A stretch of DNA of 64,000 nucleotides from an uncultured SAR86 cluster bacterium (lineage in GTDB: Bacteria > Pseudomonadota > Gammaproteobacteria > Magnimaribacterales > AG-339-G14), in assembly GCA_902595715.1 (NCBI GenBank), contig CACJRI010000002.1, positions 53,449-117,448 of the forward strand, in the 5' to 3' direction. The position numbers were made by a program, and so were the translations under genes. The first letter of the stretch is position 1, and each line of letters starts with the position of its first letter. The notes below the pieces were generated by a model, which saw nothing but the letters and a program-made list of their open reading frames with translations, made no database searches and was not told where the DNA came from. Shown here in pieces: positions 47,809 to 54,603 of the stretch.

Positions 47809-48609
47809 TTATTTTCTTAACTTGAAGATTGCTAGCTGATTAATACTCATACAACACTGCTTTGATTTTTCTTCAAATAAATTTACTTCCACTTCAATGA
47901 ACTCATGGCCTTTTTTTTCATAAAAGTCGATAACAGACATTTCTGCGATTAAGGTTGTCTCTAAAGATACAGTTTTATAATTTTGAGATTTTGTTTGAAG
48001 ATGAACCCAAGGATTCATAAATGCATTGCCAGCCAATATCCAATTAGCACATCCCAAAAGAAAGCTCAGATTTGCATGACCAGATTTACTTGGTTGCAAA
48101 ATTAAAGGTAATTTTTTTTCATCAGAAAGATAAATGAGGGGATTATCTCCACCCCAATGAAATTTAAATGCTTTGCAACCCTCTTTTTTGAGCTTCTCCC
48201 ATTCATCTAAAGATGCAACAGGAGCCTTGAAACCCTCTTGAATCAGAGGATCTCCTCTGAATTTTGGTCTAGAAGATATATTCTCTAAAATTTTTGATTC
48301 TGCATTTGCAACGATTTTTCCGTCTTGGTTCTTTAAAAATGTGTTTGTATGCCCTTCTCTAGAGCTTTCAGATATAACTTCAAAATTTTCTCCATCATAT
48401 AAAGGAGATGTAATTTTGCAGTTGGCATATCCTTTCTCAAGCCAACCCATGCCTGCGGATTCGATCACAGGATGGAGCAAATAAGCTGAAACTGTGACTC
48501 CAGGAACTAATCCGCCTTTAAAGCCATACTCTTTTGCCAGTTCATCGCTATGAATTTGATTTTCAGAATCCGGAGCAGTATTCAAAGCAGTTGCTTGCCA
48601 ATTATTCAT
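47809..48609 (-). CDS. MaoC-dehydratase-like (double hotdog?) protein
   Basis: The N-terminal NQIHSDELAKEYGFKGGLVPG resembles the MaoC IH.D...A...GF...I.HG motif. The rest is unrecognised. Confidence 0.55.
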   Translation of the reverse strand: MNNWQATALNTAPDSENQIHSDELAKEYGFKGGLVPGVTVSAYLLHPVIESAGMGWLEKGYANCKITSPLYDGENFEVISESSREGHTNTFLKNQDGKIVANAESKILENISSRPKFRGDPLIQEGFKAPVASLDEWEKLKKEGCKAFKFHWGGDNPLIYLSDEKKLPLILQPSKSGHANLSFLLGCANWILAGNAFMNPWVHLQTKSQNYKTVSLETTLIAEMSVIDFYEKKGHEFIEVEVNLFEEKSKQCCMSINQLAIFKLRK

Positions 48610-48618
48610 AAAACAAGA

Positions 48619-49452
48619 CTATACTTCAGCTTTCTTTTTTTGATAAGAAATCATTAAACCCAAAGCAATGGGAAAACTGCCTAGCAAGAACTCTCCAATA
48701 AATATTTGATTATAGTCTGTGCCGTGAGCATAAATAGCTATGAGATTGAAAATTCCTGCCCCAACATAAATAATGCCGGCAGAGAAAAACCATGCAGAGT
48801 TTAAAGTAATTACGCCAATGATAGAAAACAAAAAAGTTGCCACAAAAAACGAGGTAAAGTCTCTAAGCAAAGCATTTTGAGCGCTAGAATTAAGCTCATT
48901 AAAAATAAATCCAAAATCAGAGGCTGCGCTAATAGGCGTAAAAATCCAGTTTAAGACCAATCCTAAAATTAAATAAGCATAGATAATGCCTAAAGTTCTT
49001 ATAACAAAAGAAATCTTTCTGTCTCTAGAAATAAGAATGTTGAATAAATATCCTCCAGCAAAACCAGCAAGACAATGTAAGAATTTTCCCAGAATAGTCC
49101 TATTGCCTCCAAGAACTTCAGTTTGTGTCGTAAATTCAACCAATAAAAAAAGGGTTAAACCTGTGATAAAGGCACCTGCAATTGGATAAAGGTACTTTGT
49201 CTCTGGGACATACTTTTGAATGATACCAACTAAAGAAAATGCTATAGCGAATTCAATGATAATGATTCCATAAAGAAGAATTCCAAGTCTTTGAAAATCA
49301 AACAAGATGATTTCTAGGGAAGAAAAAAAATTTACAGGCAGATTCATTGAAGAAAGCCATATTATGTTTGCAAATGATGAAATCGGAGTGGTCAAAGCTA
49401 CGGTAAACAATGCCGCAACAAGAATTGCAAATGGGTATTTTGCTATTTTCAT
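48619..49452 (-). CDS. polytopic membrane protein of unknown function (~8 TM)
   Basis: Hydrophobic throughout. ATGA overlap with the stop of the upstream PQQ-type dehydrogenase gene. Confidence 0.6.
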   Translation of the reverse strand: MKIAKYPFAILVAALFTVALTTPISSFANIIWLSSMNLPVNFFSSLEIILFDFQRLGILLYGIIIIEFAIAFSLVGIIQKYVPETKYLYPIAGAFITGLTLFLLVEFTTQTEVLGGNRTILGKFLHCLAGFAGGYLFNILISRDRKISFVIRTLGIIYAYLILGLVLNWIFTPISAASDFGFIFNELNSSAQNALLRDFTSFFVATFLFSIIGVITLNSAWFFSAGIIYVGAGIFNLIAIYAHGTDYNQIFIGEFLLGSFPIALGLMISYQKKKAEV

Positions 49453-50639: not shown

Positions 50640-51860
50640 ATGAAATTTGAACATTCTAAAAAAACCAAAAATCTTATAAAGAAAGTTTCCGATTTTATGG
50701 AGGAGAATGTTTATCCAGCAGAGGAAATATATGCTTCGGAAATGAAGACTTTTCGCACAGCTGGTAATCCCTGGCAAGTCCCAAAAGTAATAAATGAGTT
50801 AAAGCGGAAAGCAAAAGCTCAAGGCTTATGGAATTTCTTCTTGCCCGAAAGTAATAACGGTTTCGGCTTAACTAATCTCGAGTATGCTCCTCTTGCTGAG
50901 CTGATGGGAAAAGTAAGCTTTGCTTCAGAGATATTTAATTGTTCCGCTCCAGATACTGGAAATATGGAGGTTTTGGACAAATTTGGATCGGATTATCAAA
51001 AAGATAAGTGGTTGCAACCTCTCCTAGATGGCGAAATCAGATCAGCCTTTGCGATGACAGAACCGAATGTAGCATCCTCTGATGCGACTAATATTGAAAG
51101 TAAAATTGAAAAGGATGGGGATGAATATGTTATCAATGGTGAAAAATGGTGGACTTCAGGATATGGCAGACCCGACTGTAAGATAATGATTTTTATGGGC
51201 GTAACAAACTCAGAGAATCCAAAACATCAAAGACAATCTCAGATACTCGTGCCTACAGACGCCAAAGGTATTGAAAATCTTAGGATGTTAACTGTTTATG
51301 GAGCAGATCATGCGCCCAATGGACACGCTCATCTTAAATTTACCAATGTGAGAGTTCCCAAAGAGAACTTAATTTTAGGAGAAGGTAGAGGTTTTGAGAT
51401 AGCTCAAGGAAGACTCGGCCCAGGTAGAATTCATCACTGTATGCGAATCATAGGAGTCGCTGAGAGAGCTTTGGACTTGCTATGCAAACGTTCATTAAAT
51501 AGAAAAGCCTTTGGAAAACCTTTGGCTGAACTAGGAGGCAATTATGATGTAATCGCTGACTGCAGGATAGAAATTGAAATGTGTCGGTTAATGACTTTAA
51601 AGGCAGCTCATATGATGGATACCGCTGGGAATAAAATTGCTAAAAGTGAAATTGCCCAGATTAAAGTCGCCATTCCTTTAATGGCAACTAGAGTCATTGA
51701 TAAAGCCATTCAAATTCATGGCGGTGCAGGAGTTTCACAGGATACGCCTCTGGCAAGCTTATATGCTTCTGTTAGATATTTGAGAATTGGTGATGGTCCC
51801 GATGAAGTTCATCGACGCACAGTTGCAAGATATGAACTAGGAAAACACGAATCTTTATAA
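50640..51860 (+). CDS. acyl-CoA dehydrogenase (ACAD10/11-like subfamily)
   Basis: N-terminal ...VYPAEE.Y.........NPWQ.P....LK.KAK..GLWN.FLPE, then [19 protein letters not shown] and [12 protein letters not shown] motifs. Confidence 0.9.
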
Positions 51861-51877
51861 AGTATATAATAGTAATA

Positions 51878-52405
51878 ATGTTGGCTTTTAAAGAACAAAA
51901 CTGCGAACTTACTCTGGCTGAAGGTCTAGAGATTTATCTGAGTTATTTAAAAGAAAATAACAAAAAAATTGGTACGGACGGTTCGGATGATGATTATAAG
52001 ATTTGGCAATGTCACGATTGCACTCATGTCATTTTTGGTAATGGTGCTACTTTTGAAGAAGAATCCATAAATGATCTGCATGGACTTATTTTGTGTTCCT
52101 ATAAATGGAAAGATTATCTAGCTTATTTTGAAGATCCTTTTTTAAAAAATCACATGAAATATTTATGGAAAGAAGTAGGTTTCAAAAAAACAGTGATTTC
52201 CATGTTTTATGCTTATAAATCTCTTTTTGGTATTTTAAAAATGAGATTCAGAATGAAGAAAAAATGGCCTCTTAAAGTTCCAGAATCCTACTTGTCGAGG
52301 AAAATTTGCGATTTAAGAGAGGAATACGGAATACAAATACTTTCTGAAAAACAAAGACCTAAAAATTTTATTGAATGGTCCGGATCAATCAAAAACCCTA
52401 GGTGA
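51878..52405 (+). CDS. hypothetical protein with HDxxH-x11-E motif, paralog 1 (175 aa)
   Basis: QCHDCTHVIFGNGATFEEE fits the Coq4-family putative zinc motif HDxxH-(x)11-E. It is clearly paralogous to the 53957-54487 product. It starts 17 nt after the ACAD stop. Confidence 0.6.
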   Translation: MLAFKEQNCELTLAEGLEIYLSYLKENNKKIGTDGSDDDYKIWQCHDCTHVIFGNGATFEEESINDLHGLILCSYKWKDYLAYFEDPFLKNHMKYLWKEVGFKKTVISMFYAYKSLFGILKMRFRMKKKWPLKVPESYLSRKICDLREEYGIQILSEKQRPKNFIEWSGSIKNPR

Positions 52406-53193
52406 TGTTTCCTTCAAATATCTGGCTTTACATTCTTATTTTTGTAATTGTCGGTGTGATTTTGAGCTTTCCTTTTAAATCAAAATTTCAAAAAAACTTT
52501 TTTCTAGCAAATGGTAAGGTTGTTGATTTACCAATGATGTTAAGCTTTTTGATGATTTGGGGAAGTATATATTTAGGCTTTCAAGCAGAGACTGATAGCT
52601 GGAAAGATTACAGACAAGGTATTTTTAATGCAGCAGGTTTAGAAGGTGATAATCACCCTGCTGGGATAATTTTAAGTAAGTCAAATTCTAAATCAGAATT
52701 AATAGATAATTTATTTGAAGAGCAATCGTACTATAAAGCTTATGAAGGATATACGTTAGAAAAATGGAAAGAAAATGGTTGTGTTTATCCAAAATTAAAT
52801 GGGGGCTGCGATGATCGTGCAAAAAAAATATATAAAGAAATTGAAATAATAGTCTCTGATTTATTCCCTAGAAAAGCTGAGTTTTTTGAGACACAGACGC
52901 ATTATTTCAATCTAGCTGAATATAAAAATCCCAATGCAATGTATTTTCAATACTTTTTTATTTTTGTATTTTTAATAATTTTGTTGATACATATTCAAGG
53001 ATCAAATCTAATCTGGGGAATAATTCAAACAATTTTTCGAGTGCCGATTATGGGTCCCCTTGCAGGAGCTTTAATTATTTTCAACTTGTTTTCTTCTGCA
53101 AAAAGTGCAGAGAACGCCATCGAAACTAAGAAAAAAGGTAAAGCAATTTCTGAAGGTATAAAGAAATCAAAAAGAGAAAAATATGATATCTGA
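52402..53193 (+). CDS. hypothetical membrane protein (263 aa, 2+2 TM with ~110-aa central loop)
   Basis: GTGATG start overlapping the upstream stop. Hydrophobic helices at both ends and a Lys-rich C-terminus. No recognised motif. Confidence 0.55.
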   Translation: MMFPSNIWLYILIFVIVGVILSFPFKSKFQKNFFLANGKVVDLPMMLSFLMIWGSIYLGFQAETDSWKDYRQGIFNAAGLEGDNHPAGIILSKSNSKSELIDNLFEEQSYYKAYEGYTLEKWKENGCVYPKLNGGCDDRAKKIYKEIEIIVSDLFPRKAEFFETQTHYFNLAEYKNPNAMYFQYFFIFVFLIILLIHIQGSNLIWGIIQTIFRVPIMGPLAGALIIFNLFSSAKSAENAIETKKKGKAISEGIKKSKREKYDI

Positions 53194-53644
53194 AAAAGAA
53201 AATAATGATTTTAGCGATAAAGGTACTTTTCTTTGTGCATTTTTAGCTTTGACACTTGGACCTTTAGGAGTTCATAAGTTTTATGTTGGCAGGATAAAGT
53301 CTGGGTTCCTTCATATTCTCGCTTCTTTTTTTATTATCGGCATTCCATTAGCAATGTTTGATCTATATCAAATCTTTAAAGGAAATTTTATTGACGTCAA
53401 TGGCAAAAAACTTAAACCAGGGAGCAATCTGACTAAAGGCATGACTTACGAAGAAAGAGTAGAAGCAAATAAAGAGTGGGTAGACAGCACCCCCGTGATG
53501 AAATCGATTAAGGAATTTGAGAAATGGATTAAGGAATTTGATGAAAAGTATGGACTTTCATCAAAAGAAAAAGAATTGCTCAAAAAAGGAGATGTCAAAG
53601 GAGCCTTTGAGGAAGCTCAGAAGAGAATGGATGAAAGCCAATAA
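53183..53644 (+). CDS. TM2-domain membrane protein with charged C-terminal helical region
   Basis: FLCAFLALTLGPLGVHKFYVGRIKSGFLHILASFFIIGIP matches the TM2 (PF05154-type) G..G.H.FY.G pattern. 11-nt overlap with the upstream gene. Confidence 0.7.
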   Translation: MISEKENNDFSDKGTFLCAFLALTLGPLGVHKFYVGRIKSGFLHILASFFIIGIPLAMFDLYQIFKGNFIDVNGKKLKPGSNLTKGMTYEERVEANKEWVDSTPVMKSIKEFEKWIKEFDEKYGLSSKEKELLKKGDVKGAFEEAQKRMDESQ

Positions 53645-53949
53645 TGTATTTGTGCAAAGCTGACTCAACTGTTTACTTTCTTAATCAAAATGGATCCGAT
53701 AAATGGGTTAATCCTCTAGATATAGGAAATGAACGTGAGCTTTACCCTTTAGATTTCATTCCAAATACTCTTTCGATAGTTCCATTATACAAAACCGACT
53801 TTCTTTCATGGGGAGATGAGAAATTCTATGCAGATAATCGCGGTGGAATTCATATTTTTATCTCGCTTTCAGAAAAAAAAGTGGATCACCCTGACATGTT
53901 TGCGATTTATGCGGATGACTTAGTTTATAAAGATAACGCTAATTTATAA
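53644..53949 (+). CDS. hypothetical soluble protein (101 aa)
   Basis: TAATG start/stop junction with the TM2 gene. No recognised motif. Confidence 0.5.
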   Translation: MYLCKADSTVYFLNQNGSDKWVNPLDIGNERELYPLDFIPNTLSIVPLYKTDFLSWGDEKFYADNRGGIHIFISLSEKKVDHPDMFAIYADDLVYKDNANL

Positions 53950-53956
53950 TTATTAG

Positions 53957-54487
53957 ATGCTCATTTATCAACAAGAGACTTGCGAACTGACCTTAAAAGA
54001 AGGAATTGAAGAATATCGAAGTTATTTAAGAGAAAATAATCGCCACGTATTAGGTGAAAATTGCTCAGAAGACGAAAAATTTAATATCTTATGTCATGAT
54101 GCAACTCATGTGATTTTTGGTTTGGATACTTCTTTGGAGGAAGAAGCCATGCTGGACTGCTGGATATTTTTTGGTGGCGATTACTTTAAAGTTTCGATGG
54201 AATATTTTAAAGGCTCCTTAGATATAAAAGAAACAAATGAAAAAGTTTTTGATCTTCTTAAGGAAGTTGGATATTTGAAATACACTTATCTGTACTTAAG
54301 AGTGGTATTCCGAAAATGGCCCAAGATTTTTTTTAGAACCAGAAAGATGAAAAAATGGTCTTACTTTTTTCCTTCAGACTTTCTTGAAAAGAAAATCTCA
54401 GACCTCAGAAAAGACTTCAATATAAGGATACTTTCTCCTGAAGAAAGAAAAATGAAGAAAGTCATTTGGCAAAGAGCTATTTCTTAA
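53957..54487 (+). CDS. hypothetical protein with HDxxH-x11-E motif, paralog 2 (176 aa)
   Basis: LCHDATHVIFGLDTSLEEE carries the same motif. It shares CELTL.EG.E.Y.SYL.ENN, LKEVG, KKW and I.DLR....I.ILS.E.R blocks with the 51878-52405 product. Confidence 0.6.
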   Translation: MLIYQQETCELTLKEGIEEYRSYLRENNRHVLGENCSEDEKFNILCHDATHVIFGLDTSLEEEAMLDCWIFFGGDYFKVSMEYFKGSLDIKETNEKVFDLLKEVGYLKYTYLYLRVVFRKWPKIFFRTRKMKKWSYFFPSDFLEKKISDLRKDFNIRILSPEERKMKKVIWQRAIS

Positions 54488-54499
54488 TTTATTGAAACT

Positions 54500-54576
<77 letters not shown>

Positions 54577-54603
54577 TAAAAGTTAATATCATTCTGAATG
54601 AGT

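Follow-up and report, generated by a model that had tools for sequence, protein, structure and literature searches.

Short Coq4-like proteins and an apparently composite, strain-variable gene block beside tRNA-Met in a SAR86 bacterium

Five co-oriented genes lie between an acyl-CoA dehydrogenase gene and a tRNA-Met gene in a 64,000-nucleotide stretch of DNA from an uncultured SAR86 cluster bacterium (contig CACJRI010000002.1, positions 53,449 to 117,448 of the forward strand; this whole stretch is called the window), and the first and last of them encode paralogous small proteins, pA and pB, which carry the HDxxH-x11-E motif of Coq4. An earlier note made from the sequence alone (the original prediction) had read the five genes as one membrane-anchored, metal-dependent module. 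Comparison with relatives suggests that the Coq4 link is real and better founded than a motif match, and that the five-gene arrangement is lineage-specific. The explanation favoured here, which as a whole we put at about 60%, is a composite block in which a resident, truncated Coq4-like protein (pB) and an optional paralog (pA) stand with a variable insert, together with the function proposed below. Relative loci and contigs fetched for comparison with the window are labelled L001-L100, members of the protein family have P-numbers, and the features of the locus are these:

50640-51860, forward strand: acyl-CoA dehydrogenase, an open reading frame (ORF) whose orthologs match Pfam Acyl-CoA_dh_N/M/1; syntenic in L001-L003, L008-L022 and L034
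51878-52405, forward strand: pA, 175 amino acids (aa), diverged accessory paralog of the short Coq4-like family, 36% identical to pB
52405-53193, forward strand: p262 (263 aa if read from GTG 52402), orphan membrane protein with four hydrophobic segments, an insert gene
53183-53644, forward strand: TM2-domain protein (Pfam TM2), 153 aa, second insert gene
53644-53949, forward strand: p101, small soluble orphan, 101 aa, optional third insert gene
53957-54487, forward strand: pB, resident short Coq4-like protein, 176 aa, found in every related locus
54500-54576, reverse strand: tRNA-Met(CAT), called by ARAGORN, 3' end toward pB, bordering the spot of variable gene content

The coordinates and junctions of the five coupled ORFs after the dehydrogenase are all as first described. 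A spacing of 17 nucleotides (nt) separates the dehydrogenase stop (51860) from pA, whose own stop codon, TGA at 52403-52405, overlaps GTG 52402 and ATG 52405; the membrane-protein and TM2 genes share an 11-nt overlap (53183-53193), the TM2 gene and p101 meet in a TAATG junction (53642-53646), and a 7-nt spacer (53950-53956) separates p101 from pB. Simple scans gave no promoter- or terminator-like site above shuffled expectation inside the block and none before pA, and the dehydrogenase gene is probably the first of the transcription unit, in which case its promoter would drive read-through of all the block genes. Purifying selection acts on all five genes, with ratios of non-synonymous to synonymous substitution rates (dN/dS) of 0.06-0.43. 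Downstream of pB and beyond the tRNA-Met lie rpoD and dnaG, the gap from the pB stop to the rpoD stop spanning 54488-54603.

The two outer proteins, originally judged paralogous at roughly 35-40%, share 36% identity from end to end (BLASTP, E=3e-29), far beyond chance, and both do have the exact motif spacing seen in them at first (HDCTH-x11-E in pA, HDATH-x11-E in pB). An exhaustive profile search for their family, clustered at 50% identity, collected 545 clusters at E<=1e-3, of which 293 reach E<=1e-10; almost all are 145-180 aa long, and almost all contain HDxxH-x11-E. In an alignment of 109 members with a mean column identity of 22%, H47, D48, H51 and E63 (pB numbering) are the sole invariant columns, which bears out the earlier idea of a distinct, shorter family with the Coq4 metal site. 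The AlphaFold2 (AF2) model of pB (pLDDT 90.2, pTM 0.86) is all-helical, HDxxH ending a helix at residues 38-53 and E63 opening another at 60-73, and the four residues are putative metal ligands on this modelled helix-loop-helix. Hydropathy gives no hydrophobic segment in pA, pB or p101. For its part pA retains H46, D47, H50 and E62 plus the MKKKW block, at a dN/dS of 0.08. In a rough neighbour-joining tree pB groups with the resident SAR86 lineage and pA sits on a separate long branch, and is therefore not a fresh tandem copy; pA would appear to be an optional, older, faster-evolving paralog keeping every invariant residue.

The family spans alpha-, beta- and gammaproteobacteria, with named members from SAR86, Halieaceae/Luminiphilus/HTCC2080, Rhizomicrobium, Caulobacteraceae, Ramlibacter, Variovorax, Rubrivivax and Caldimonas, plus cyanobacterial plasmids (Acaryochloris, Nostoc). 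Two descriptions of it were used, a broad alignment and profile (A2) that was too diverse for the genome scan, and a narrower, SAR86-centred one (A1), the pattern with which the scan was made, so that taxon counts are biased toward SAR86 and Halieaceae. NCBIfam and PADLOC have zero matches for all five proteins of the block, PHROGs yields only generic TM2 families, matched by the TM2 protein, and no member of the short Coq4-like family turned up in IMG/VR viral contigs. No description of short bacterial Coq4-like proteins was found in the literature.

Homology to Coq4 emerges most clearly from profiles. Against all PDB sequences the A2 profile has two credible matches only, to 3MSQ, a 'putative ubiquinone biosynthesis protein' (E=1.9e-4, aligned over residues 124-220, from the motif to the C-terminus), and to 6E12/Alr8543 (E=2.3e-3). 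Aligned by hhalign with the 3MSQ and 6E12 chains, the family reaches 95.3% probability (E=2e-8) over 96 columns that end at a shared R-E-x-G-I C-terminus, and Foldseek with the pB AF2 model returns the 6E12 chains as the top two and only plausible matches, though at weak scores. Weak matches to Pfam Coq4 (PF05019) are found for 73 of the 109 members along a gradient, in which the Acaryochloris member and P0476 pass the gathering cut-off of 22.9 bits (26.9 and 26.7 bits), P0464, P0467 and P0457 are near misses (22.6, 21.2 and 20.4 bits) and SAR86 members lie far below; the Acaryochloris member is named 'Coq4 family protein' in RefSeq, and a few others are labelled Coq4 by IMG. Because the PDB profile matches, hhalign, the Pfam gradient with its labels and Foldseek all converge, the family is treated as a divergent branch of the Coq4 superfamily. 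It appears to be truly, if remotely, homologous to the C-terminal half of Coq4, more than a motif look-alike, and to represent an N-terminally truncated branch that runs from just before HDxxH-x11-E to the C-terminus. The original suggestion of a shorter family with the metal site is borne out, and the homology extends beyond the motif. A generic Coq4-type metal-binding function for pA and pB is graded as highly probable. A single-sequence search of PDB with pB gave spurious matches only, such as glutamate mutase, and the A1 profile nothing relevant, the Coq4 structures being reached by the A2 profile alone.

Like Coq4 (PF05019; 6E12, 3MSQ), the short family bears HDxxH-x11-E on a helix-loop-helix in similar surroundings (HDxxHVvxGxdT...E), can be aligned from the motif to the R-E-x-G-I end, is all-helical in the pB model and occurs in alpha-, beta- and gammaproteobacteria and cyanobacteria. 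In contrast to Coq4, at about 220-265 aa, its members have about 150-176 aa, a stretch of about 45 residues with an invariant LTLxEGLxxY of its own standing in place of the N-terminal half, and they contain an invariant (M)KKKW block for which neither solved Coq4 homolog showed a counterpart.

What such a protein might do is suggested by recent work on COQ4 itself, in which the H, D, H and E residues are Zn ligands, the prenylated ring loses its C1 carboxyl in vitro, and double mutants in the four motif residues (H142A-H146A and D143A-E158A) abolish activity (PMC7615680). COQ4 also rescues E. coli ubiD and ubiH defects in an O2-dependent manner, and in a cyanobacterial Coq4 homolog a hydrophobic tunnel adjoins the binuclear metal site (PMC10680789). 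Some 28% of the Pseudomonadota that make ubiquinone are without UbiD/UbiX (preprint 10.64898/2026.03.05.709815). In the available part of its Table S1, the one complete SAR86 genome there, GCA_023703575.1, has UbiA, B, E, G, I and Coq7 and lacks UbiD, X, H, F, L, M and N, and Variovorax GCF_014843395.1 and GCF_014303735.1 show the same pattern (10.64898/2026.03.05.709815); as far as that part of the table goes, these three genomes therefore have no known enzyme of C1 decarboxylation or C1 hydroxylation. The C1 steps missing there are the two reactions attributed to COQ4, and the two taxa carry the short family, so that on this partial record a C1 role is plausible. Within SAR86 the family behaves like a near-core gene in single copy.

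In the mechanism proposed here, H, D, H and E on the helix-loop-helix would hold one or two divalent metal ions (Zn in COQ4), and pB and pA would be small metal enzymes working on a hydrophobic aromatic carboxylate, the most likely reaction being C1 decarboxylation of prenyl-4-hydroxybenzoate, possibly oxidative, in bacteria without UbiD/UbiX and UbiH. That the family is specifically a ubiquinone C1 decarboxylase is a tentative assignment, with the odds somewhat against it. The fuller proposal is less likely by a further step: that the family is the missing C1 decarboxylation enzyme of SAR86 and of other aerobic Proteobacteria without UbiD/UbiX or a known C1 hydroxylase, possibly in a single O2-dependent oxidative decarboxylation that adds the C1 hydroxyl, a half-size Coq4 core sufficing and pA and pB being perhaps heteromeric or substrate-diversified. 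If right, the short family would share a step with UbiD/UbiX, UbiH, UbiN and UbiB, namely the loss of the C1 carboxyl from prenyl-4-hydroxybenzoate, whether or not C1 is also hydroxylated, but would be a small metal enzyme with no sequence or fold relationship to any of them, UbiD needing prenylated flavin mononucleotide (prenyl-FMN), UbiH and UbiN being flavin mono-oxygenases and UbiB being ATP-dependent and kinase-like.

Several points weigh against this reading of pA and pB. Both window proteins fall outside formal Pfam Coq4 membership, pB scoring 14.5 bits over the motif region and pA having no match, and the Foldseek match to 6E12 is weak (TM-score 0.39-0.40, probability 0.63-0.69, E 0.24); the profile and structure searches that the original prediction had proposed for Coq4 likeness thus delivered profile homology to 3MSQ and 6E12, but neither the Pfam cut-off nor a strong structural match. 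The matches are limited to Pfam Coq4 positions of about 120-221, the family being without the N-terminal half of Coq4, and its LTLxEGLxxY may correspond to the Coq4 LPEGTLGxxY segment in an alignment of low confidence. The link to absence of UbiD/X/H is suggestive and thin, coming from three genomes in the available part of Table S1, with family carriage established at the level of the taxon and not for those assemblies. Alternative decarboxylation is credited by the same preprint to UbiB (10.64898/2026.03.05.709815). Gene-neighbourhood analysis found no ubi gene as a conserved neighbour in any context, and the cyanobacterial plasmid members sit amid BBE-oxidase, methyltransferase and ester-cyclase genes, which suggests other aromatic chemistry. 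To our knowledge cyanobacteria, the Acaryochloris host included, make no ubiquinone.

The neighbourhoods also feed the strongest alternative, in which the short proteins are metal enzymes, or binders of lipid or aromatic ligands, unrelated to ubiquinone, and serve in modification or detoxification of aromatic compounds or secondary metabolites or as binuclear metallohydrolases. Besides the lack of ubi neighbours it can call on the cyanobacterial plasmid sites, where a BBE-domain oxidase, a TetR regulator, a methyltransferase and an ester cyclase stand nearby, on SnoaL-like neighbours in Luminiphilus, and on the reported resemblance of COQ4 metal-site geometry to that of binuclear metallohydrolases (PMC10680789). 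However, those relatives that have been characterised act on the C1 carbon of ubiquinone, most of the family comes from quinone-producing alpha-, beta- and gammaproteobacteria, and in SAR86, whose one genome in the available part of Table S1 has no known C1 enzyme, the gene behaves as near-core and single-copy. We regard this alternative as unlikely on balance, although it is the one most to be reckoned with.

Whether the five genes belong together was judged on 80 species-representative genome loci gathered with the family pattern and on metagenome contigs (including L092-L096), onto all of which the window proteins were mapped; tblastn of these proteins covered 91 loci (the 80 genome loci plus L001-L011). 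The window pB is 98-99% identical to genes of the SAR86 single-cell and metagenome-assembled genome assemblies AH-326-N13 and AH-321-K11, in identical synteny. Among the 91 loci the middle genes occur in L012 and L013 only, both 98-99% identical to the window; the other 78 genome loci and L001-L011 lack them, and co-occurrence of the five genes was not found beyond the immediate lineage. The original prediction had itself named lack of co-conservation in any other genome as grounds for giving it up, and that is essentially what this survey found. Within the SAR86 clade of the window at least five states exist between the dehydrogenase and tRNA-Met/rpoD:

dehydrogenase-pB: L015-L018 and L021
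dehydrogenase-pA-pB, with a 15-nt pA-pB spacer: L001-L003, L008-L011, L014, L019, L020, L022 and L034
dehydrogenase-p262-TM2-pB, without pA or p101: L095 and L096 (contigs L093 and L094 stop short of pB)
dehydrogenase-pA-p262-TM2-pB, without p101: L012
all five genes: the window, L013 and L092

Across these states pB is constant, pA is optional (absent in L015-L018, L021 and L093-L096), p101 is optional, and p262 and TM2 are always paired, always at the same locus and beside pB wherever the contig extends that far. The block is very probably a composite, non-conserved operon. In such an operon p262 and TM2, with or without p101, would be a strain-variable insert that landed in the 15-nt pA-pB spacer, and in strains without pA the insert would sit directly after the dehydrogenase. 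The early impression of an accessory block fits pA and the three middle genes; pB, resident in every related locus, is the exception. The gap between pB and tRNA-Met is empty in the window and holds extra cargo in relatives, with no integrase seen: a CotH-like gene in some genomes, and in L015, L019 and L020 a 403-aa gene together with one of 206 or 230 aa. The site beside the tRNA-Met 3' end is a gene-content hot spot.

A single module, with the Coq4-like pair docked on the four-transmembrane (4-TM) and TM2 proteins and acting on a quinone or lipid substrate, would fit the tight coupling junctions, the one orientation, the absence of internal promoter or terminator signal, the purifying selection on all genes and the restriction of p262-TM2 to this one locus, but it is improbable: the cassette is confined to one species-level lineage, where the gene set differs between strains, pA and p101 each being present in some and missing in others; sister genomes that do not have the cassette keep pB and pA fully conserved; and in 55 of the 80 genome loci a single family member lies elsewhere, with no TM2 or p262 homolog nearby. 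No evidence was seen of a tie between p262, TM2 or p101 and the Coq4-like proteins beyond co-transcription. Slightly less probable again are non-catalytic scaffold or chaperone subunits of the Ubi complex, the original view of yeast Coq4, for although Coq4 was long regarded as the organiser of complex Q (PMC10680789) and the proteins are small, helical and soluble, the strict invariance of exactly four metal ligands in 109 divergent members points to catalysis or at least metal binding, and both 2023-24 studies show a catalytic COQ4 (PMC7615680, PMC10680789).

Turning to the insert, p262 has four hydrophobic segments arranged around a soluble middle, about 115 aa long and containing two conserved cysteines, and its C-terminal tail is rich in Lys; the first description of a 4-TM protein followed by a soluble 101-aa one agrees with hydropathy (four segments against zero), and Pfam has nothing for either. 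The length first given, 263 aa, is that of the ORF from GTG 52402. The protein most likely starts at ATG 52405 (262 aa), a start favoured because orthologs in loci without pA begin MLPSN at the equivalent ATG, and the exact 263-aa product has no record in the assembly index. Orthologs of 89-97% identity are found only in L012, L013 and L092-L096, and dN/dS is 0.17-0.19. No Pfam, NCBIfam, PHROG, PADLOC, PDB or phage match was obtained for p262, and its single-sequence structure model has a pLDDT of 54.

The TM2 assignment of the 153-aa protein is upheld by Pfam TM2 (PF05154; 36.3 bits against a cut-off of 27.9, E=6.6e-9, residues 19-54), its hydrophobic stretch being residues 38-65, and it also matches PHROG TM2-type families of unknown function. 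It has the two-helix hairpin and GxxGxHxFY-type motif of TM2-domain proteins and differs from them in its lineage-specific charged C-terminal tail and in its pairing with an orphan 4-TM protein. The tail varies in near-identical strains, the protein having 153 aa in the window, 140 aa in L012 (7551-7973) and 146 aa in L013 (7248-7688), and the dN/dS of 0.33-0.43 is the highest in the block, indicating the most relaxed selection. The literature yielded no function for bacterial TM2 proteins; we know of none for those of bacteria or phages, so the comparison yields no mechanism.

The third insert gene encodes the soluble p101 (dN/dS 0.06-0.12), present in the window, L013 and L092 and absent from L012, L095 and L096. 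Its residues 2-22 (53647-53709) match the repeated blade of PQQ-type beta-propellers and of the designed 'Cake' propellers that were based on these, with summed E down to 5e-6 and no single stretch significant. This is the sole signal for p101, which may be a one- or two-blade fragment that oligomerises.

The GC content of the insert, 30-34%, equals that of its neighbours, so that composition gives no hint of a recent foreign source. Descent from a phage or a defence system is likewise unsupported, there being no PHROG, PADLOC, phage (for p262) or viral-contig relatives, and the TM2 protein matching viral contigs over 28 residues of the generic domain only. The insert looks like flexible-genome cargo circulating within the lineage and not like a recent foreign element.

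Elsewhere the family has other settings. In about 27 SAR86 species its gene lies between engB and polA, in classical gammaproteobacterial synteny, the main setting of the 55 lone copies. In L004 (5423-6516) and about 20 other SAR86 loci it begins at the last base of engB, which encodes a YihA-type GTPase, with a convergent polA on the other side and cytochrome c4/c5 and dsbA near, an overlap that suggests translational coupling of engB and the family gene. A third group within SAR86 carries it close to genes for a cyclase, PsiE and an acyltransferase, and in Luminiphilus and other Halieaceae it adjoins CotH/DUF3604 or SnoaL-like genes. A CotH-kinase-like gene (~695 aa) adjoins the short Coq4-like gene both in the SAR86 clade of the window, downstream of pB (L008 7136-9223, L022, L034), and in Luminiphilus/HTCC2080, directly upstream in L050, L053, L057 and L071 and on the opposite strand in L069. 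Between the two orders the CotH proteins share 56-58% identity, well above the roughly 40% of the adjacent Coq4-like proteins, a pattern that hints at lateral exchange and perhaps a functional link. On the Acaryochloris marina plasmid pREB1 (L099 6001-6456) the family gene is near a BBE-domain oxidase, a metallo-beta-lactamase (MBL) hydrolase and an acyl-CoA dehydrogenase, and on a plasmid of Nostoc sp. MS1 (L100 5058-5483) it is near a TetR regulator, a methyltransferase, an isochorismatase and an ester cyclase.

Upstream of the dehydrogenase in the window, two genes at 47809-48609 and 48619-49452, both on the reverse strand, are conserved throughout the SAR86 clade of the window and encode a 266-aa soluble protein and a 277-aa multi-pass membrane protein, neither with a Pfam match.

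For the block itself the outcome is a useful negative, in that it warns against taking the TM2 and 4-TM genes for partners of the Coq4-like proteins. The short family is uncharacterised, and naming it would give an identity to hundreds of 'hypothetical proteins'. Coq4 is linked to human disease with its mechanism unresolved, and were the proposed function true the minimal catalytic core of Coq4 would be defined. For the removal of the C1 carboxyl in the roughly 28% of ubiquinone-producing Proteobacteria without UbiD/UbiX, UbiN and UbiB are recent partial answers. SAR86 are among the most abundant heterotrophs of the surface ocean, and for a ubiquinone step that has no known enzyme in them, as far as the available part of Table S1 goes, the short Coq4-like family would be a concrete candidate, testable by complementation in E. 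coli.

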